From sequence record NC_042307.1: a stretch of 64,000 nt of DNA; one strand, written 5' to 3'. The first letter of the stretch is position 1. The number at the start of each line of letters is the position of its first letter. The notes beneath the pieces are model-generated. The model ran no database searches. It was not told the origin of the DNA and saw only the letters and a list, made by a program, of their open reading frames with translations. Below are positions 38,754-60,878 of the stretch, piece after piece. A program made the translations under genes and the position numbers. This stretch comes from a phage.

Positions 38754-39515
38754 TTACACCTTCCCCATGTCTTTAAAAATATCGTAGAATGCTTTAGACT
38801 CAGCAGAACGAACGTTATCAATCAATTCGATCATTGAGAATGGAGCATTTTCATATTTCTCATAAACTTCCATAAGAAGTGCTAGACCTGAGTCACCTTT
38901 AATGTCTTTCTGAGCTATATCTCCGCAGATAATTAAACGGCAGTCTTGTCCTACACGAGTTAGGAGACAAACCATTGCCTCAACGGAAATATTCTGAGCT
39001 TCATCGACAATTACATAGGAGTTGTTGAAAGTTCTGCCACGAGCATGTTCTATAGCCAAAAATTTAATTTTCTGACGTTCGACATATCCCTTATAGGCAT
39101 GATCACCGATGGCCCATTTCATACCATCAGCTATTGGCTCCAACCAAGGCTCTAGCTTTTCTGCTAGATCACCAGGAAGCATACCAAGAGACTTACCTAG
39201 AGGTTCATTAGGACGTACGAGGATCACTTGCTCAATATCTGAGTGAATGTCTACGAGTTCCTGAGCTGCAAGAACAGACGGGATAAAGGTTTTACCTGTA
39301 CCTGGCTCACCGATACCCACAGTCACTGTGTTGTTCTTGATCATATTAATATATGATTTTTGCTCTCGGTTTTTACCTACTAGGGATTTAGCAACTGGGT
39401 TAGCGTAATCATTAGAAAAATCAGCCTGAATTACGTTATTCTCATATTTGTTGCCACGCTTTCTTGAACCATTGCGGTTCTCTCTTTTTTGACGTGCTTT
39501 TCCCATAAATAACAC
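38754..39515 (-). CDS. phoH: PhoH-like ATPase
   Basis: Walker A 'GEPGTGKTF'. Confidence 0.7.
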   Translation of the reverse strand: MLFMGKARQKRENRNGSRKRGNKYENNVIQADFSNDYANPVAKSLVGKNREQKSYINMIKNNTVTVGIGEPGTGKTFIPSVLAAQELVDIHSDIEQVILVRPNEPLGKSLGMLPGDLAEKLEPWLEPIADGMKWAIGDHAYKGYVERQKIKFLAIEHARGRTFNNSYVIVDEAQNISVEAMVCLLTRVGQDCRLIICGDIAQKDIKGDSGLALLMEVYEKYENAPFSMIELIDNVRSAESKAFYDIFKDMGKV

Positions 39516-39748
39516 TCCTATAGTGTACTTCGCTTCTAACAGAGGATCAACAAAGAGATCTTGTTTATCAACTTACAAATATATTATAACAAGGTTTACA
39601 GCAAAAAGCAAGTATAATTTTAAATAAACCTATGATATTGCTTTTAAATAAAAAATTTACTTGCTTATAAAGGTAGAAATATGATACTAGATAATCATTT
39701 ATTTATATGCGAAATATTACAGTATTAGATGGCGAAAGAAAATTTTAA

Positions 39749-39777
39749 TTGACATAGTGGATAATGTTTAGTATAAT
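39749..39777 (+). promoter_or_regulatory. Sigma70-like promoter (-35 TTGACA, 17 bp, -10 TATAAT)
   Basis: Read directly upstream of first plus-strand gene. Confidence 0.55.
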
Positions 39778-39800
39778 AGGTGTAAAAATTCTGTGGAGAA

Positions 39801-40670
39801 GTGGAATGCCCGAAAAAATTAACTCAAGAAGAAGTAGATAAATGCCTAGCCGAGCGTGGTTTTACTATGGTGGATAAGCCATATCAAAATTCTAGGTATA
39901 GGCATACGTATCAGTGTGAATACGGTCACCAATGGACAGCTAAATTTGACGCTATTAGGAATGGAAAGACCAATTGTCCTACTTGCTCTATTAGTAGCCG
40001 TAAACTAGATATTGATAAAATTAATACTATATTACAGGACAGAGGTATTACATTGTTGAACGGCTATAAAAATAGTGCCGATATAAATACTAAATTTAGG
40101 TGTGTTTGTGGTCATGAGTGGGCTACTACACTTAATAGTATAATTAATAGAGGTAGTGGCTGCCCATCTTGTGCTGCTAATAAACAGAAACTTAGTGTTA
40201 ATACTATAAATGATCGTCTTGCTGCCAGAAATATCAGAATAGTGGGTGAGTATAGTAATGCGAATACTAAGACCGCCTTTCTTTGTGGTGCAGGGCATAG
40301 GTGGGAAGCTACTCCAGGGTCTGTATTAAGGGGGAACGGTTGTCCTTACTGTAGTTATAGAGATTTAGAAAGTACTAGGATATATGTTATGTATAGCCCC
40401 TCACATGGGGTTAAAATAGGTAGGTCTAACAATCCAGAGCGTAGACTTCTACATATTAGATCTAGTAGCCACCTTATTGATTTGGAAATAATTAAAGTAT
40501 TTGAAATTGGGGAATATAGTAGTGCAGTTCGAATAGAAAAATTAGCCCATAACTACTTTAAAGAGCAGAATTGCCAGTACAAAGATTTTGACGGCGCTAC
40601 GGAATTCTTCAATATTGAACCAAAAGTAGCTATAAAGTTTATCGAGGAAATAATCAATGACAGAGAATGA
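39801..40670 (+). CDS. T5orf172/GIY-YIG-like endonuclease with four zinc-ribbon repeats (GTG start)
   Basis: Repeated 'C.C.H.W....GCP.C'; 'RIYVMYSPSHGVKIGRS'. Confidence 0.55.
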   Translation: MECPKKLTQEEVDKCLAERGFTMVDKPYQNSRYRHTYQCEYGHQWTAKFDAIRNGKTNCPTCSISSRKLDIDKINTILQDRGITLLNGYKNSADINTKFRCVCGHEWATTLNSIINRGSGCPSCAANKQKLSVNTINDRLAARNIRIVGEYSNANTKTAFLCGAGHRWEATPGSVLRGNGCPYCSYRDLESTRIYVMYSPSHGVKIGRSNNPERRLLHIRSSSHLIDLEIIKVFEIGEYSSAVRIEKLAHNYFKEQNCQYKDFDGATEFFNIEPKVAIKFIEEIINDRE

Positions 40671-44834: not shown

Positions 44835-45263
44835 ATGTTTAATAATGTATTCTCTAAAGAAGCTAACCCAATATTGGTTAATTTTTGGCGTACTCTTCCA
44901 GACAACCTGTACAATGAGGCTATTAATGCCCTGAAAATATGGTGTGATAATAATGAAATCTCCTTTGCTTTTAGAGGTGAGGTTGAAGAATCTCCCTGTA
45001 TTGGTTTAATTGTGCAGGTAGAGGATGGTTTTGAAGAGATTGTCGGCTGGAAAGAGTTAGATGAAATGGGCTTGGTTTTTGCATTAAACTATAAGCTATT
45101 TATGCCCAATAAACACCGTATTGTTGTTAACTATAAAACCGGTGAATCTCCTGGTTTTCAAGTTAACGAACATTACGGTTGGTCTTACTCACCGGAAGAG
45201 GTAAATGATGGTATCCAGAAACTTCGTCGTTTTGGTTATCAAATTCCGGGTTTAACTGCCTAA
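44835..45263 (+). CDS. hypothetical protein, paralog A
   Basis: Shares 'SF.F...PC.G', 'GL..ALN..LF', 'PGL' with next ORF. Confidence 0.5.
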   Translation: MFNNVFSKEANPILVNFWRTLPDNLYNEAINALKIWCDNNEISFAFRGEVEESPCIGLIVQVEDGFEEIVGWKELDEMGLVFALNYKLFMPNKHRIVVNYKTGESPGFQVNEHYGWSYSPEEVNDGIQKLRRFGYQIPGLTA

Positions 45264-45272
45264 GGAGGCACA

Positions 45273-45665
45273 ATGGAACAAGTATACTGGCGTCAGATAG
45301 ACCCTAGTTTGGTGAAGCGTGCGGAGAAGCTGCTACAACGTTGGTTGGGGGTAAGACAAGCCTCCTTCACTTTTCCGGAGCAGCAAATAGACGATCCCTG
45401 TGTTGGTGTTTTTCTATCAGGCTACGCTGGGGAATGGGAATTGGATTGGAATGAATTGTCTGCTATAGGTCTAATTGTTGCCCTAAATTTCTCTTTGTTC
45501 CATCCACGTGGTTTGGCCATATGTCGTGTGCCTGAGGACGGTTGTTCGCCCCATCTTTTACAGGTGGAAGATGATATTTGGGAGTACACTCCAGATATTC
45601 TCAAAGAAGCCAAAGAACAATTAAACCGTGTTGGGATTTATGTTCCAGGCCTGAATGATGAATGA
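45273..45665 (+). CDS. hypothetical protein, paralog B
   Basis: Tandem paralog of 44835..45263. Confidence 0.5.
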   Translation: MEQVYWRQIDPSLVKRAEKLLQRWLGVRQASFTFPEQQIDDPCVGVFLSGYAGEWELDWNELSAIGLIVALNFSLFHPRGLAICRVPEDGCSPHLLQVEDDIWEYTPDILKEAKEQLNRVGIYVPGLNDE

Positions 45666-45804
45666 TTTTTATTAGCTGAACTTTGTAATCCGGGCTATTA
45701 GTGCTCGGATTATTACATAATCTTTTCAGTCGATTGATAGTCAAAATAAATTGTCGTTGACAATTTGGATGGATTATGTAATAATATATGTATTGGAGGT
45801 GAGG

Positions 45805-46257
45805 ATGTCATTCACACAGCAAGAACTTTTAGATAACTTCCGGTATGAAGAGGGTAAGTTATTTAGAACTACAGGAAGAAATGCAGGGAAAGAATGTTGT
45901 GTTTCTACGGGTAACGGATATTATCGTATATCTCTAGGGAATAGGACTATGCTTCGGCATAGAGCAATATTTTTAATGCATCATGGATACTTACCTGATT
46001 TAGTAGACCATGTGAATACTATAAAAGGTGATGATCGTATTGAAAATCTTAGAGAGCAGACAGTATCCGGTAATCTAAGAAATATCAAATATAAGAAAGG
46101 AATGCATGTTTACCCTTCTGGTAGTAAGAACTGGCAAGTGGTATTTACTATTAACCGTAAACGTATAGTTAAAGGAACATATGACAACTATGAGGTTGCA
46201 TGTTCTATGGCCAAGATGTTTAGAGGTCAATTATACGGTAGGGAATCAATCCAGTAA
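45805..46257 (+). CDS. HNH homing endonuclease
   Basis: 'HRAIFLMHHGYLPDLVDHVNTIKGDDRIENLR'; ATG 45805 with GGAGGTGAGG RBS. Confidence 0.6.
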   Translation: MSFTQQELLDNFRYEEGKLFRTTGRNAGKECCVSTGNGYYRISLGNRTMLRHRAIFLMHHGYLPDLVDHVNTIKGDDRIENLREQTVSGNLRNIKYKKGMHVYPSGSKNWQVVFTINRKRIVKGTYDNYEVACSMAKMFRGQLYGRESIQ

Positions 46258-46790
46258 AATTTCATTTGCAAGGGAGTATTATTTTATAGTATAATATTCC
46301 CATAAATGAGAGACATTAGTAAAAATTGATTTTGCTAATTTTTCTTGTTTACAATCCGCGATACGGAACAGTTAGGCTGCCCCATTAAGGGTTGTTTTAA
46401 CTATTACTAGTGTTTATATTGCATTAGTTAATCTTCAATTAAGTGATCTGTGTACCCTGAATTCGGAAAGGTAAATCCAAACCGTGCATATTTAGCTCGT
46501 TATATAGGCAGAGTTTTATATGGGGGTGCGAACGAAAAGAGCAGCGAATGGCGGCACGTACAGTAGTCACCTACCAATAGGATAGTGAGGACAAATAGAA
46601 TCGGCTTAGCGGCCAATGACCTAGGTTCTATTCTGTATATGAGCGAAGAGAGCACAGCACTGAGATATGATAACTTATTCATATTGTTTGATGATAATTG
46701 ATGTTTACGTAAATAGTAGTAATAGTTGTTCTATTCTTTCTGAATAGTCCTAAAGAAAAGATTTCGATTAACCAACACAGGAGTATTGTT

Positions 46791-49580
46791 GTGTTTTCTA
46801 TCCTCCAAGGTCACGCCGGATTTTCTCGTGATTTAGCAACAGGTATTTGGCGAGAAATCAAAGCGGAAGATTATACCTTTGCCAAGCGATTCTCGAAAGA
46901 GCATCCAGAAGGTAAACCAGCTTCTATGCCCTTCAAATTTGATGTAATAGAAGAGCACGACCCACAAAGCCTTGCCGAAATGTTACCCCTTATGAGACGT
47001 TTAACGTCTGATCCTCATATCGTTGCGGTACGAGGTCGATGTCTTGCACCAAAAAATAATGTGCGACGTAAGAAAGGTAACTTTAATGTATCTAATCCTA
47101 GTAATATTATTGCTATGGACGTGGATGGTATCCTAGATACCGGTGGGTACGACAAATTTAATCTTGTTGGTATGGCCCGCCACATTATTAAGATGTTGAA
47201 TAGTATTAGTGAGGATATGTTTCCTCTTGATGCAGGCTTTATAGCTCATGCATCGTCTTCGGCTGGGCTAAAACCAGGTATCCGAATGCACTTAATGCTA
47301 GAATCTAACGTCAAGGTAACTCAGGGTCAGCTAAAGTTCTTATTTACATCTATCAACGATAGCAGTAAGCAAAAATTTGGTTTTGATATTGCCGACCTAG
47401 CTTATTATTCATCTGTCCAGCTCCACTATTTTGCCGACCCCTTATTTAGCGATGGTATTGTTGATCCGTTTAAAGCGGAGAGTAAGCCACGTCTGGTGTA
47501 TGTTAAAGGTTCGAAAGTAAATTTGCCCAATAATCTGGTTGACTATGAAACAACTAGAGGGGAGTTTAAGGAAGAGTTTTATTCCTTACTTGATCAAATT
47601 AAAGGCAAAAAGATTGCTTCTGATAAAGTAGAAGAAACCATCAGCGAGTTAGAAGAGGCTGATGATGGAGTGTATTTGCGTATTATCCCCAAACTATATC
47701 ATAGAGCATTAGAGGATGGGGTTGATTTTGCATGGCTAGAACGTGAGATTAAACCAGCTTTATCTGAATATATTGCAACTAAAGATAACAGTCGTAATAT
47801 TCAAGATTACTTTAATAACGGTCGTAAGCAGGCTCTCAAAGCGTTTGTGAATAACTCCAAACGTGAGATTCCATTAAATCTGAAAGGTGTTCCACTTAAG
47901 AAATTAGAAGTGGATTCTCCACCAGAAGTTCCATACCTGAAGATTAACATTGTGCCCCCAAAAGGCCATATAACATTTGTTAAGGCAAGTCTTGGTACTG
48001 GTAAAACTACGGCAGTAACTAAATGGCTGGACGCAGGTGTTCTTCCTGGCAACTTTTTAGCAGTTACAAATACTAGAGCACTAGTGTCTTCAAATGCTAA
48101 GAAATTTAGTGCAGGACAATATGATAAGTCTGTAGATATGCTTAATTTCAAGCGTGGTGCTATTGACCGTATGTCCACAACTATTCACTCTTTGCACAAG
48201 TTTAAGAGTTTTATTGGTCAAATTGATGCAATCTTTATCGATGAATGTGATGCAGTAATGAATGACTTATTATTCGCCCCCGTTGTTAAACAACGTCGTG
48301 AATGTATTCAGGTTCTTCGGGATATTCTTGCAACTGCAAAAATAATTATATTATCTGATGGTGATATTAGTGCAGAAACAATTGAAGCCTATGGTTCTTT
48401 GATTGATTTTGATAAACCAGTAGCATTTTATAATCATCATCGTAAGATGCTGTCAAAAGCTCACGCTTATGAGTTTCCTGATGAATCCAGTATTTGGGTT
48501 GCACTTCAGACTTCTCTAGAAATGGGTGAGAAGTCCATTCTAGTATCTGATTGTGGGCCTGATGAGCTGAATGAGAAGGGTATGGCACTACGTCGTAATA
48601 CTGGTGCGTTAGTTAAGGAAATCCATTCAAACTCTACCTCAGATGTGGATATTCGACGTATTCTGGATTATACAACTAATGAGCTAATTGATCAACAAAT
48701 TGATTGCTTATTATGTAGTCCATCCGTAACGAGTGGCGTTGACTTCAACTATTTCGATAATGTATTTGTTATTACTAGAACCAGTAATCAGGCGCCGAAC
48801 ATGCGTTTCCAAGCAATCAGGCGCGACCGTGGTGCTCAGAACATCTATTATTTTATTGATAAATCCACTAGTGGGTTCTCCGCAGGTTCTGAACAATATA
48901 ATATTGATGAAGGTTGGCTGGAGTTAGCACAGCAATTATACGCACGTCGTAGAGAGCTGGAATCTAGAAACTATACTAGTACCTTACGTTATTATTTGCT
49001 TGATCAGGGCGCAACTATTGATATTTTCAGCGAAAGCTGGGGAACTATTGAAGGTGCTGGTAAAGAATATACAGAAGAGCGAATCAAAGCTATTCTGCAT
49101 TCAACTCCAGATTATTGTGCCCCACGTCATGCAGATGCATATGAAGCTAAACTACTTCTTGTTCGCTATTATCATCTTGAGTCTATTAAAGATGTAACAG
49201 TTGAGCATGTTGAACAATATATCAAAGATAAACCGAATGATCGAGCTGCATTCTTCCATAAGATGCACGAGATGTTCTGGGAAGATATTAAGAAGTGTTC
49301 AAATGTAACCATTAAACCATTCATAGAAGCTCTGAAAGGTAAGAAGAAAGACTTCTTCCTTAAAACAGGTCAGAGTGCTAACCCAAAATATGCTAGAATG
49401 TATCTTGGTATGATGGGTATTGGTAAGGATATGAACACTGAAAATATCGTAGACTGGTACAGAACCTATTGTAAAATCGAGTGTATGCCGATTCCTTTCA
49501 AATTCATGACTGACGAGGAAAAACATATGCATGATGAAGCAATGTCAGAGCTAGGTGCTAGAAATGACAGTGAAGAATAA
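46791..49580 (+). CDS. P-loop NTPase, putative replication origin-binding/helicase-like protein (929 aa, GTG start)
   Basis: Walker A 'SLGTGKTTAV', 'FIDECD' Walker B-like. Confidence 0.5.
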   Translation: MFSILQGHAGFSRDLATGIWREIKAEDYTFAKRFSKEHPEGKPASMPFKFDVIEEHDPQSLAEMLPLMRRLTSDPHIVAVRGRCLAPKNNVRRKKGNFNVSNPSNIIAMDVDGILDTGGYDKFNLVGMARHIIKMLNSISEDMFPLDAGFIAHASSSAGLKPGIRMHLMLESNVKVTQGQLKFLFTSINDSSKQKFGFDIADLAYYSSVQLHYFADPLFSDGIVDPFKAESKPRLVYVKGSKVNLPNNLVDYETTRGEFKEEFYSLLDQIKGKKIASDKVEETISELEEADDGVYLRIIPKLYHRALEDGVDFAWLEREIKPALSEYIATKDNSRNIQDYFNNGRKQALKAFVNNSKREIPLNLKGVPLKKLEVDSPPEVPYLKINIVPPKGHITFVKASLGTGKTTAVTKWLDAGVLPGNFLAVTNTRALVSSNAKKFSAGQYDKSVDMLNFKRGAIDRMSTTIHSLHKFKSFIGQIDAIFIDECDAVMNDLLFAPVVKQRRECIQVLRDILATAKIIILSDGDISAETIEAYGSLIDFDKPVAFYNHHRKMLSKAHAYEFPDESSIWVALQTSLEMGEKSILVSDCGPDELNEKGMALRRNTGALVKEIHSNSTSDVDIRRILDYTTNELIDQQIDCLLCSPSVTSGVDFNYFDNVFVITRTSNQAPNMRFQAIRRDRGAQNIYYFIDKSTSGFSAGSEQYNIDEGWLELAQQLYARRRELESRNYTSTLRYYLLDQGATIDIFSESWGTIEGAGKEYTEERIKAILHSTPDYCAPRHADAYEAKLLLVRYYHLESIKDVTVEHVEQYIKDKPNDRAAFFHKMHEMFWEDIKKCSNVTIKPFIEALKGKKKDFFLKTGQSANPKYARMYLGMMGIGKDMNTENIVDWYRTYCKIECMPIPFKFMTDEEKHMHDEAMSELGARNDSEE

Positions 49581-58310: not shown

Positions 58311-60878
58311 TTGAAAATTGCAGTAGTTGATAAAGCTCTAAATAACACTCGTTATGATAAACACTTCCAGCTTTATGGTGAGGAAGTTGATGTATTCCAT
58401 ATGTGTAACGAGAAGTTATCTGGTCGTTTGCTGAAAAAGCATATTACAATCGGAACTCCAGATAACCCGTTCGATCCGAACGATTACGATTTTGTTGTGC
58501 TAGTCGGTGCTGAACCTTTCCTGTATTTCGCAGGTAAGAAAGGTATCGGTGATTATACTGGTAAACGTGTAGAGCATGGTGGCTATGCCAACTGGATTGC
58601 AAGTATTAGTCCAGCTCAGCTACACTTTAAACCTGAAATGAAACCAGTTTTCGATGCTACTGTTGAAAGTATTCACGACATTATTAATGGTCGTGAGAAG
58701 ATTGCAAAAGCTGGTGATTATCGTCCTATTACTGATCCAGACGAAGCTGAAGAATACATCAAGATGGTGTATAACATGGTTATCGGACCTATCGCATTCG
58801 ACTCCGAAACCTCAGCTCTGTATGCTCGTGATGGTTATCTTCTTGGTGTTTCTATGTCTCACCAAGAGTATCAGGGTGTCTATATTGACTCTGACAGCAT
58901 CACCGAAGTAGCTGTACATTATCTCCAGAAAATTCTGGATAGTGAAAACCACACTATTGTTTTTCACAACTTGAAGTTTGATATGCACTTTTATAAGTAC
59001 CATCTGGGACTTTCCTTTGAGAAAGCGCATAAAGAGCGTAGACTTCACGATACCATGTTACAACACTATGTTCTCGATGAACGTCGTGGTACTCACGGCT
59101 TGAAATCTCTAGCAATGAAGTATACCGATATGGGTGACTATGACTTCGAACTAGATAAGTTCAAGGATGATTATTGCAAGGCACATAAGATCAAAAAAGA
59201 GGATTTCAGCTATGATCTGATTCCTTTTGATATTATGTGGCCATATGCTGCAAAAGATACCGATGCTACTCTGCGTCTGCATAACTTCTTCTTACCAAAA
59301 ATTGAGAAGAACGAAAAGCTTTGCAGTCTATACTACGAAGTTCTGATGCCTGGTTGTGTATTCCTGCAACGTGTTGAAGATCGTGGTGTACCGATTTCCG
59401 TTGATCGCTTGAAAGAAGCTCAGTATCAGTTGACTCATAATTTGAATAAAGCCCGGGAGAAACTGTACACTTATCCAGAAGTCGTTCAGCTGGAGAAGGA
59501 TCAGAACGAAGCGTTTAACCCGAACTCTGTTAAGCAACTCCGTGTTCTTCTGTTTGATTATGTTGGTTTGACTCCAACTGGTAAACTGACGGATACAGGT
59601 GCAGATTCTACAAATGCAGAAGCTCTGAATGAACTGGCTACTCAGCACCCGATTGCTAAAACTCTGCTAGAGATTCGTAAGCTGACTAAGCTGATTTCTA
59701 CTTATGTTGAGAAGATTCTTCTGAGCATCGATGCAGATGGTTGCATTCGTACAGGTTTCCACGAACACATGACTACTTCTGGTCGTCTGAGTTCTTCTGG
59801 TAAGCTGAACCTGCAACAGTTACCACGTGATGAATCTATTATCAAGGGTTGTGTAGTAGCTCCTCCTGGATATCGTGTAATCGCATGGGACTTAACAACT
59901 GCGGAAGTTTACTATGCTGCTGTTCTATCTGGTGACAGAAATATGCAACAAGTATTTATCAACATGAAGAATGAGCCTGATAAATACCCTGACTTCCACT
60001 CAAACATCGCACACATGGTATTTAAACTGACTTGTGAACCACGTGATGTTAAGAAGCTGTTCCCAGCTCTGCGTCAGGCTGCTAAGGCAATTACCTTCGG
60101 TATTCTGTATGGTTCTGGCCCAGCGAAAGTAGCTCATTCTGTTAACGAAGCTCTTCTGGAACAGGCTGCTAAGACAGGCGAACCGTTTGTTGAATGTACC
60201 GTTGCAGATGCGAAGGACTATATCGAAACTTACTTCGGTCAGTTCCCTCAGCTTAAGCGTTGGATTGATAAGTGCCACGATCAGATCAAGAATCATGGAT
60301 TTATCTATAGTCACTTTGGTCGTAAACGTCGTCTGCATAATATCCATTCCGAAGACCGTGGCGTTCAGGGTGAAGAAATTCGTTCTGGATTTAATGCAAT
60401 CATTCAGTCTGCTTCTTCTGATAGTCTCCTTTTAGGTGCTGTAGATGCAGATAATGAGATCATTTCTCTTGGCTTAGAACAAGAGATGAAGATTGTTATG
60501 TTGGTTCATGACTCCGTAGTTGCTATTGTTCGTGAAGACTTGATTGATCAATACAATGAAATTCTGATTCGTAATATTCAGAAAGACCGTGGTATCAGTA
60601 TTCCTGGCTGTCCGATTGGTATTGATTCAGATTCTGAAGCTGGAGGTTCTCGTGACTATTCTTGTGGTAAGATGAAGAAACAGCACCCATCAATCGCTTG
60701 TATTGATGATGATGAATATACTCGTTACGTTAAAGAAATGTTACTTGACGCAGATTTCGAGTATAAGAAATTAGCTGCAATGGATAAAGAGCATCCAGAC
60801 CACAGCAAGTACAAGGATGATAAGTTTATTGCTGTATGTAAAGATTTGGATAATGTAAGAAGGATTCTCGGTGCTTAA
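58311..60878 (+). CDS. DNA polymerase, family A with 3'-5' exonuclease (TTG start)
   Basis: 'FDSETSALY', 'RQAAKAITFGILYGSG', 'VHDS'; 855 aa. Confidence 0.8.
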   Translation: MKIAVVDKALNNTRYDKHFQLYGEEVDVFHMCNEKLSGRLLKKHITIGTPDNPFDPNDYDFVVLVGAEPFLYFAGKKGIGDYTGKRVEHGGYANWIASISPAQLHFKPEMKPVFDATVESIHDIINGREKIAKAGDYRPITDPDEAEEYIKMVYNMVIGPIAFDSETSALYARDGYLLGVSMSHQEYQGVYIDSDSITEVAVHYLQKILDSENHTIVFHNLKFDMHFYKYHLGLSFEKAHKERRLHDTMLQHYVLDERRGTHGLKSLAMKYTDMGDYDFELDKFKDDYCKAHKIKKEDFSYDLIPFDIMWPYAAKDTDATLRLHNFFLPKIEKNEKLCSLYYEVLMPGCVFLQRVEDRGVPISVDRLKEAQYQLTHNLNKAREKLYTYPEVVQLEKDQNEAFNPNSVKQLRVLLFDYVGLTPTGKLTDTGADSTNAEALNELATQHPIAKTLLEIRKLTKLISTYVEKILLSIDADGCIRTGFHEHMTTSGRLSSSGKLNLQQLPRDESIIKGCVVAPPGYRVIAWDLTTAEVYYAAVLSGDRNMQQVFINMKNEPDKYPDFHSNIAHMVFKLTCEPRDVKKLFPALRQAAKAITFGILYGSGPAKVAHSVNEALLEQAAKTGEPFVECTVADAKDYIETYFGQFPQLKRWIDKCHDQIKNHGFIYSHFGRKRRLHNIHSEDRGVQGEEIRSGFNAIIQSASSDSLLLGAVDADNEIISLGLEQEMKIVMLVHDSVVAIVREDLIDQYNEILIRNIQKDRGISIPGCPIGIDSDSEAGGSRDYSCGKMKKQHPSIACIDDDEYTRYVKEMLLDADFEYKKLAAMDKEHPDHSKYKDDKFIAVCKDLDNVRRILGA

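Follow-up and report, generated by a model that had tools for sequence, protein, structure and literature searches.

Which function resides in the long gap upstream of the replication gene D2 in T5-like phages? We addressed this question in a 64,000-nucleotide (nt) stretch of phage DNA from sequence record NC_042307.1 (the window), where the gap occupies 46258-46790 and the gene that follows encodes a protein of 929 amino acids (aa). T5 has been a model phage for ~80 years; to our knowledge, neither its replication origin or origins nor the control of D2 has been defined at the sequence level. An earlier note on the window had proposed that the gap is a candidate replication origin or a noncoding RNA (ncRNA). 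Comparison among phages indicates that the gap encodes a folded plus-strand RNA that is kept by compensatory changes. We give an even chance to the reading that this RNA is a new, large, structured cis-regulatory leader of the D2 mRNA, which would be processed at a long stalk and read by a protein, possibly D2 itself, that binds its invariant motifs. Features described below lie on the plus strand unless stated otherwise.

The region 46200-46850 matched 439 phage records, the closest being Escherichia phage AKFV33 at 99.4% identity; from 46290 on, the window was 98.6% identical to phage T5. By these matches, the window is therefore assigned to Tequintavirus, family Demerecviridae. The gap spans 533 bp between the end of an HNH homing-endonuclease open reading frame (ORF) at 46257 and the GTG start codon of D2 at 46791, exactly where the earlier note had placed it. 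The note had called it the largest gap of the plus-strand replication block, and it does exceed every other gap between plus-strand ORFs at 39.8-64 kb (the runners-up measure 286 and 200 bp). Its mixed composition was likewise apparent, with a GC content of 24-35% at 46250-46450, 43-47% at 46450-46650, and 29-30% at 46650-46800, and the plus strand folded better than expected by chance, reaching -133.4 kcal/mol (z = -3.77), a value that none of 100 shuffles attained. The putative origin-binding ATPase downstream is T5 D2/obp, annotated as 'replication origin binding protein' and recognized by the Pfam model Herpes_ori_bp. In T5, the counterpart gap (59,041-59,614) is annotated only with a predicted terminator and a predicted early promoter, T5P32; other database records show at most a 'promoter', a 'terminator', or small ORFs that are spurious.

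Every enterobacterial Demerecviridae lineage examined had ~500-710 bp of gap before its D2 homologue, including T5, DT57C, IME178, EPS7, Yersinia phage phiR2-01, Klebsiella phage Sugarland, Pectobacterium phages My1 and DU_PP_V, and Providencia phage PSTCR5. In two alignments (A1 and A2), a promoter, two motifs (motif 1 and motif 2), and the ribosome-binding region were conserved, the first three being invariant; between them the sequences diverged almost completely with their length kept. The earlier note had suggested comparison across T5-like genomes, with poor conservation counting against a function. What we found was the opposite: among phages sharing the same type of central domain (the core), the RNA was more conserved than the flanking genes. 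Relative to the window, T5 was identical in the core (100%), 98-100% identical in the 5' and 3' parts of the RNA, and 95-97% identical in the flanking coding sequences, and the corresponding values for EPS7 were 92.7%, 92-96%, and 77-86%. For DT57C and IME178, identity was 66-67% in the core, 83-88% in the 5' and 3' parts, 85% in D2, and 92-96% in the upstream gene. In a separate core-to-core alignment, normalized differently from these segment identities, EPS7 scored 93% and DT57C and IME178 scored 58-61%, against 53% for shuffled sequences with a maximum of 57%.

Cores this divergent could not be aligned by MAFFT. The sequences were instead aligned with a custom STRAL-like aligner, which uses the pairing probabilities of each sequence and was anchored at five conserved words, and the consensus structure was derived with RNAalifold from the resulting structure-guided alignment. 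Base pairs were counted in alignment A4 (N-padded), which holds ten distinct sequences (identity below 97.5%) drawn from seven lineages. The custom aligner misplaces parts of Sugarland and PSTCR5. Standard pairs filled 84.6% of the paired cells, as opposed to 37-45% when partners were slid by 1-3 columns and 75.4% in 500 shuffles. Changes on both sides were seen in 49 of 123 pairs, compared with 19-31 in the slid controls and 27.2 ± 3.2 in the shuffles, none of which reached 49. The covariation score was 0.288, whereas the slid controls gave at most 0.108 and the shuffles 0.151 (0/500 reached the real value).

Because a structure-guided alignment can itself create apparent covariation, the whole pipeline was also run on 24 null sets in which the inter-anchor segments of six divergent sequences had been dinucleotide-shuffled. 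The real data yielded 78 consensus pairs, against 20 ± 5.6 in the null sets (maximum, 32), and 32 compensatory pairs, against 8.5 ± 3.4 (maximum, 17). The consensus energy was -78.0 kcal/mol, as opposed to -21.5 ± 5.2 kcal/mol. Pairs are kept through two-sided changes above the level of the controls, as in a structured RNA under purifying selection.

The structure has a polarity. Inside it, G·U cells outnumbered A·C cells by 596 to 64, compared with roughly 1-2:1 in the slid controls, and the minus strand folded less well (z = -1.59) than the plus strand. Since G·U was far above A·C and the plus strand folded better, the plus strand was taken as the functional one. Compensatory changes as such prove pairing in a single strand, not in RNA, and DNA hairpins tolerate G·T pairs; together with the AT-rich flanks, this leaves room for an element that acts as DNA, either a duplex origin or an ssi/pas-type signal with hairpins in the single-stranded plus strand, to which transcription would be irrelevant. 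We consider such an element very improbable. An invariant promoter is directed into the structure in every lineage, and a hairpin holding the Shine-Dalgarno (SD) sequence and the start codon of D2 is part of the same conserved unit. Moreover, ssi signals comprise 100-200 nt with 2-3 hairpins, whereas the structure here extends over ~430 nt with pairing across ~270 nt. Finally, no iterons or repeated protein-binding sites were found in the gap by a repeat search (seed 7), which returned only two-copy families of 10-22 nt with irregular spacing; the inverted repeats in the gap are the two strands of the RNA stalk. An iteron-type duplex origin was rejected on the lack of clustered repeats, despite the AT-rich flanks.

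The gap might also be a decayed gene or a chance structure, as its window copy does contain short ORFs of 26-60 codons. We leave this explanation next to no chance. ORFs of 25-77 codons in the gap differ in strand, frame, and position between lineages, and we rejected a protein gene or pseudogene; even between T5 and EPS7, which are 92-96% identical here, none is conserved, and the two plus-strand ORFs of T5 are absent from EPS7. A chance structure would not show covariation far above all controls, nor would a relic be better conserved than its neighbors within a core type.

The RNA could not be assigned to a described family. A scan of the whole window with Rfam 15 (4,227 models) at gathering level found only seven tRNAs, all of them elsewhere; 45600-47000 at E ≤ 10 gave only noise, at 14-20 bits against thresholds of 40-94, and in six other lineages no match at E ≤ 1 fell within the leader. 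The Rfam check that the earlier note had proposed for the window thus returned no family for the gap in any lineage scanned. No similarity suggestive of host mimicry was found in 5,426 Escherichia coli genomes, and a literature search found no paper describing an RNA, a leader, or a mapped origin at this site. In its 5' untranslated position, its combination of single-stranded motifs with covarying helices, and its expression platform at a ribosome-binding site, the RNA is like T-box leaders, cobalamin and lysine riboswitches, and ribosomal-protein leaders. However, it matches no known aptamer, precedes a helicase gene rather than a metabolic or translational one, and exceeds even the largest of them about twofold in size. 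The RNA family is new; the kind of object, a structured leader or a large ncRNA, is familiar.

Transcription of the element is predicted to start at a sigma-70 promoter at 46266-46295 (TTGCAA, an 18-nt spacer, and TATAAT; 10 of 12 consensus positions in a scan), which corresponds to T5P32 and is annotated in the AKFV33 and T5 records. The pattern TTGC, 17-18 nt, TATAATA was kept with little or no change across the 11 lineages of alignment A2, while its flanks diverged. The start site is predicted near 46302, from which we infer a plus-strand transcript of ~490 nt before D2. No plus-strand intrinsic terminator was detected between the structure and D2, either in a scan of the window or by eye in the other lineages. 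The sole terminator-like match in the leader lies on the minus strand across the motif 2 hairpin, and promoter-like sites on the minus strand occur only outside the leader (46258-46230 and upstream), with none in 46302-46790. Lacking a terminator before D2, the RNA would therefore be, at least initially, the 5' leader of the D2 mRNA. Of the two options raised by the earlier note, the ncRNA is strongly supported by the conserved promoter, the large plus-strand structure, and the compensatory covariation, whereas no direct evidence for an origin was found. As far as the sequence shows, the RNA is not a gene on its own, although processing may supply a 3' end. The T5 record places a terminator just upstream of T5P32; for this reason, the leader promoter is likely the sole source of D2 transcripts in T5.

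Single-sequence folds of eight lineage representatives shared one architecture. From 5' to 3', it consists of hairpin P1, single-stranded motif 1, the 5' strand of the stalk, helix P-iv closing the core with motif 2, hairpin Ph, the 3' strand of the stalk, hairpin P-last, and the start-codon hairpin, with ~270 nt separating the two stalk strands. P1 (46303-46351) is a 5'-terminal extended hairpin, GAGAGA...UUAGUAAAA / UUUUGCUAA...UUUUCUU, found in both the minimum-free-energy (MFE) and comparative models. Its helix (helix 2) was 88.7% paired, and compensated variants could be identified by eye in DU_PP_V (UUAGACAAG/UUUGUCUAA) and Sugarland (GAGAGAAAU/AUUCCUCUC). P1 resembles a 5' stabilizer hairpin; in phage Shivani, its inner part and U-run are annotated as a terminator. 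The comparative model of the window copy, at -125.0 kcal/mol, is 8.4 kcal/mol costlier than the unconstrained MFE.

Motif 1, GCGAUACGGAACAGUUAGGCUGCCCCAU (46358-46385), is almost invariant and has no covarying partner. Its invariant 26-nt block in alignments A1 and A2, GAUACGGAACAGUUnGGCUGCCCCAU, shows few or no differences among Tequintavirus, Epseptimavirus, My1, DU_PP_V, and Sugarland. Motif 1 occurs once in the window, where neither a second copy nor a complement was found, and it is probably single stranded or engaged in a tertiary or protein contact. Two pairings proposed for it were discarded: a self-fold (helix 3) never covaries and is deleted in My1 and DU_PP_V, and a long-range pairing of its GGCUGC with GCGGCC of motif 2 fits through G·U only, whereas two double changes favor the local hairpin at motif 2.

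In 51 phage records, P1 and motif 1 are separated by an optional insert of 97 nt that has 8-nt TTTTTCTT direct repeats on either side; it occurs at one place per genome and with both core types. It is found in DT57C (L004, about 1585-1681) and in loci L009, L067, L074, and L088, and is absent from the window, where its site would be at ~46343. The insert has a hairpin of its own (AUUUACGG/CCGUAAAU) and may be an extra leader module or a small mobile insertion.

The AU-rich 5' strand of the stalk (46398-46441) pairs with the 3' strand (46688-46728), as seen in inverted repeats I1 and I2, the comparative model, and covariation. In the window, the stalk comprises 19 and 16 bp with a 3-nt internal loop between them, ~35 bp in the comparative model, and a duplex of 22-40 bp was present in all eight lineage representatives. 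Its base, 46399-46407/46719-46727 (helix 4), was 100% paired, with both sides changed in 5 of 9 pairs. RNase III cleaves duplexes of ~20 bp or more, and the predicted duplex of the stalk is a mostly uninterrupted double strand of at least that length.

The core (46442-46661, ~220 nt) is closed by P-iv (46442-46453/46652-46661; helix 7), which over 46443-46453/46652-46660 was 100% paired with compensatory changes in 8 of 9 pairs; its variants are CUGUGU/GCACAG, CUACAC/GUGUAG, CUGCGC/GCGCAG, CCAUAU/GUAUGG, and CUAGAA/UUCUAG. Helices Pa (46454-58/46523-27), Pb (46464-66/46482-84), and Pc (46487-46501/46507-46522) each have 2-3 compensatory pairs. Pe (46558-63/46633-38) was recognized by hand from UACAG/CUGUA in T5 and UCCAG/CUGGA in EPS7, and Pf (46570-75/46580-90), with an AAUA loop, was likewise drawn by hand from the sequences. 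Pg (46594-46602/46624-46632; helix 15) was 88.6% paired, with all 8 pairs compensatory over 46595-46602/46624-46631.

Inside Pg lies motif 2, an invariant hairpin, GGCUUAGCGGCC (46603-46614), ~243 nt beyond the motif 1 block. Its loop, UUAGCG, never changes, and CUUAGCGG is invariant in all lineages, including Providencia phage PSTCR5, but its stem covaries (helix 16), from GGC/GCC to AGC/GCU in phiR201 and to GAC/GUC in My1. With a small covariance model, R1, the 64-kb window gave a single match, located at 46588-46636 (52.1 bits; E = 1.8e-12).

Between the core and the 3' strand of the stalk stands Ph (46664-46685; helix 18), in which two-sided changes affect 4 pairs; the loop of Ph in the other core type is a conserved AGUUGCCACC. 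P-last (46731-46747; helix 19), CUAUUC-UUUCU-GAAUAG, is followed by a conserved UCCUAAAGAAAA and was 89.4% paired without compensatory change, its sequence being invariant across Tequintavirus and Epseptimavirus. No U-run follows P-last in any lineage of alignment A2; it is therefore not an intrinsic terminator. An alternative pairing of a repeated GUUCUAUUCU (46625 and 46728), considered as a switch, is not conserved in the other core type and was dropped.

The leader ends in a hairpin at the translation start of D2 (46774-46795; helix 20), which was 86.7% paired. AACAC (46774-78) pairs with GUGUU (46791-95), which contains the GUG start codon, and the SD sequence AGGAG (46779-83) is in the loop. 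The variants are AACAC/GUGUU in T5, AACAU/GUGUU with a U·G pair in EPS7, and AACAU/AUGUU in Sugarland, so that a change in the first base of the start codon (GUG or AUG) is accompanied by one in the upstream base. A hairpin that buries a start codon, with the SD sequence in its loop, is a classic form of translational operator in phage replication genes, and a replication protein that autoregulates its own mRNA is a common phage design. Like the operators of T4 gp43, gp32, and regA and the MS2 coat-replicase operator, the segment 46774-46795 is a small hairpin holding the SD sequence or start codon of a replication gene. Those operators comprise 20-40 nt, whereas the leader comprises ~490 nt, and its additional 430 nt of structure have no counterpart among them.

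These features fit the cis-acting leader, to which we gave an even chance, in the following way. Host sigma-70 RNA polymerase would start at the early promoter and transcribe P1, motif 1, the stalk, and the core on into D2. As 5'-terminal hairpins protect E. coli mRNAs from 5'-end-dependent decay, P1 may protect this transcript. The AU-rich stalk would be a substrate of host RNase III, and the cut would separate the core from the D2 message. Invariant motifs in or near the core would be recognized by a factor, for which D2 itself or another early phage protein is a plausible candidate, and the hairpin burying the GUG codon would set the rate of D2 translation. The net effect would be tight control over the amount of a replication-initiation helicase.

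Known RNase III substrates offer partial parallels. As in the stalks of the E. coli rRNA operons, the R sites of T7, and the lambda N leader, pairing over a long distance and more than 20 bp surrounds a structured RNA. The T7 and lambda sites, like the leader, belong to early phage RNA made by the host polymerase, and a cut would leave a new mRNA 5' end. Unlike the leader, however, the T7 and lambda sites are simple hairpins that enclose no 220-nt core; the stalk has no sequence similarity to those of rRNA, T7, or lambda, and its cleavage is a prediction.

Several points weigh against the leader reading. The transcription start, the read-through into D2, and the RNase III cleavage are all inferred from sequence; total RNA-seq of T5 at 10 min is publicly available (PMC12483538). 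A structure-guided alignment inflates pairing, an effect that the slid, shuffled, and whole-pipeline controls address but do not remove. In the formal count, the start-codon hairpin shows no double compensatory change, and several inner helices (10, 13, 14, and 17) are weak. One D2 homologue of 45% identity (L091) has no such leader, and D2 therefore does not strictly need the RNA. Lastly, no known translational operator comes close in elaborateness to a ~220-nt core of more than 8 helices. Pure cis regulation may for that reason not explain the RNA, which keeps in play both a trans-acting RNA and a primed origin.

In the first of these, RNase III would free the core of ~220-290 nt, with motif 2, as a stable RNA or ribonucleoprotein (RNP) with a role elsewhere, such as that of a scaffold, decoy, anti-defence RNA, or ribozyme, and its proximity to D2 would reflect early coexpression only. 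The size and complexity of the RNA are in the range of large ornate ncRNAs, not of operators; a long stalk around a compact core mirrors rRNA precursors; and an invariant UUAGCG loop and motif 1 are what a binding or catalytic site would be expected to show. GOLLD (RF01998), ROOL (RF03087), and the HEARO/omega RNAs are likewise hundreds of nucleotides long, with covarying helices, invariant loops, a location in phages, and an unknown role. Yet none of their models matched any of 7 lineages, even with the E-value limit relaxed to 10 or 1, and the RNA has no similarity to any Rfam family or E. coli RNA. GOLLD and ROOL are found near tRNA genes, whereas the leader precedes a helicase gene and is not free-standing; T5 itself lacks an HNH or IscB partner.

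The divergence of the core can also be read in favor of a trans-acting RNA. By sequence, there are at least two core types, each tightly conserved internally, and at 58-61% identity despite 85% identity in D2 they point to module exchange or to rapid coevolution with a partner. Both types occur within Tequintavirus (T5, EPS7, and phiR201 versus DT57C and IME178), and the DT57C-type core is nearer to that of Pectobacterium phage DU_PP_V (62-67%), a distribution that suggests exchange of the core as a module.

The distribution of the whole RNA speaks against an independent agent. A motif scan of IMG/VR recovered 33 true loci and 7 chance matches without the promoter and motif 2, and a metagenome scan recovered 8 true loci, all close to known phages, and 5 chance matches. 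In these motif and protein-anchored scans, the RNA was found only in enterobacterial T5-like phages and always before D2. A stand-alone RNA would hardly be confined to one copy per genome directly upstream of D2, with no other context in IMG/VR or the metagenomes, nor lack a terminator or other independent 3' end signal. We regard this alternative as unlikely, though deserving of real weight.

The outer limits of the family are less sharp. The Providencia type (PSTCR5, L089, and L090; ~620 nt, left out of the alignment) combines the promoter and motif 2 with a long stalk and a hairpin resembling P1, and model R1 detects it only at E ~10. A search of Vibrio and Aeromonas phages with R1 detected nothing. 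Demerecviridae of these hosts have 640-1600 bp of ORF-poor DNA before obp (L013, 1004-1717; L096, L097, and L098; Aeromonas phage TS3, L017, 19-1608). Thalassavirus-type regions among them contain conserved blocks and a long-range ACUGAU/AUCAGU helix with compensatory changes, which, with four sequences, is only a lead.

Could the transcript serve replication directly? In a transcription-primed origin, the promoter transcript would form an RNA-DNA hybrid and be processed to prime the leading strand, and D2 would open the duplex or be loaded there. The positive hints come from the setting: a strong conserved promoter is followed by ~490 nt of structured transcript beside the gene of the presumed initiator helicase, and the transcript is richer in G than in C, with a GC skew of +0.26 to +0.33 at 46450-46600. 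By electron microscopy, Bourguignon et al. (1976) reportedly located the main origin of the first replication round close to the center of T5 DNA, and the T5 region (59.0-59.6 kb of 121.75 kb) lies at 48.5-49% of the map. In ColE1, a persistent RNA II hybrid cut by RNase H primes Pol I, under the control of the antisense RNA I. Like ColE1 RNA II and the T4 origins oriF (uvsY) and oriG (34), the leader has a promoter some hundreds of nucleotides upstream and a long structured transcript near replication functions. Among the enzymes encoded by T5 are an RNase H, a flap endonuclease, and a polymerase of the Pol I family (PMC3326045). A T5 study cites the 1976 work only for multiple internal origins (PMC3632103).

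The likeness to ColE1 is in outline only: no antisense partner resembling RNA I was detected at the leader, and, in contrast to the ColE1 and T4 origins, its transcript runs into a protein gene and carries the ribosome-binding site of that gene. An RNA that hybridizes to DNA needs neither a 220-nt core of many helices nor a start-codon hairpin, and neither iterons nor repeated protein sites were found in the gap. A positive GC skew is common to all nearby plus-strand genes, and the skew switches at ~40 kb, not at 46.3-46.8 kb; this last evidence is weak because skew follows transcription in the window. We judge a primed origin improbable. Quite improbable, too, is an unrecognized class of large ornate RNA active in T5 replication initiation, whose core and motifs would recruit D2 or be remodeled by it, with the transcript or a processed 3' end marking or priming the central origin.

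Cumulative GC skew in the window is lowest at ~40 kb, at a 286-bp divergent intergenic region (39515-39801), where minus-strand genes, including a tRNA cluster at 21.7-25.6 kb, give way to the plus-strand replication block.

The gene that carries the leader, D2 (46791-49580, 929 aa), encodes a bipolar SF2 helicase whose first 400 aa are 99.8% identical to those of T5; Herpes_ori_bp matches residues 389-533. T5 D2 has been characterized biochemically as a bipolar helicase related to UL9 of herpesviruses, and its role as the T5 replication initiator has been proposed, not shown (PMC3632103). Residues 1-400 (46791-47990) contain no Pfam domain. In ten Demerecviridae D2 homologues (26-74% identical to the window D2), this part has invariant residues, D110-x-D112 and S155/S157/G159...R165-x-H167, that resemble motifs I and II of AEP primases. 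Pfam and PDB profile searches were both negative for an AEP primase, and a single-sequence AlphaFold model of the D2 N terminus (pLDDT 39.6) was unusable.

On the upstream side, the HNH ORF (45751-46257; Pfam HNH_3, also found at locus L003, 2059-2300) sits exactly between a T5.107-like gene and the leader promoter and is absent from T5. It takes the place of the upstream terminator and of the spacer between the promoter -35 and -10 elements, and is a later insertion. In phage Shivani, a duplicate of the promoter and P1 hairpin follows the same cassette, which would fit the copying of a leader segment during homing. The T5.106-like (44835-45263) and T5.107-like (45273-45665) genes are paralogues, both belonging to phrog_2502 (function unknown). 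A T5.107-like gene immediately precedes the leader promoter in the records of T5, DT57C/IME178, and AKFV33, and the gene in this position is unnamed or otherwise named in those of EPS7, Sugarland, My1, and DU_PP_V.

A gap that is present and unannotated in more than 400 sequenced T5-like genomes has thereby become a defined object for study. The leader is among the larger covariation-supported RNA structures known in phages; it combines defined helices with a predicted RNase III stalk and two invariant motifs, exactly at a place where regulation of replication initiation would be expected. T5-like phages are used in therapy, in biocontrol, and in tests of defence systems, and host immunity might target, or be triggered by, a conserved RNA of this kind. 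Should the RNA turn out to take part in initiating replication, or to work autonomously as an RNP or ribozyme, it would represent a new class of functional RNA; if it marks or primes an origin, it would establish an RNA-guided origin in a classical model phage.

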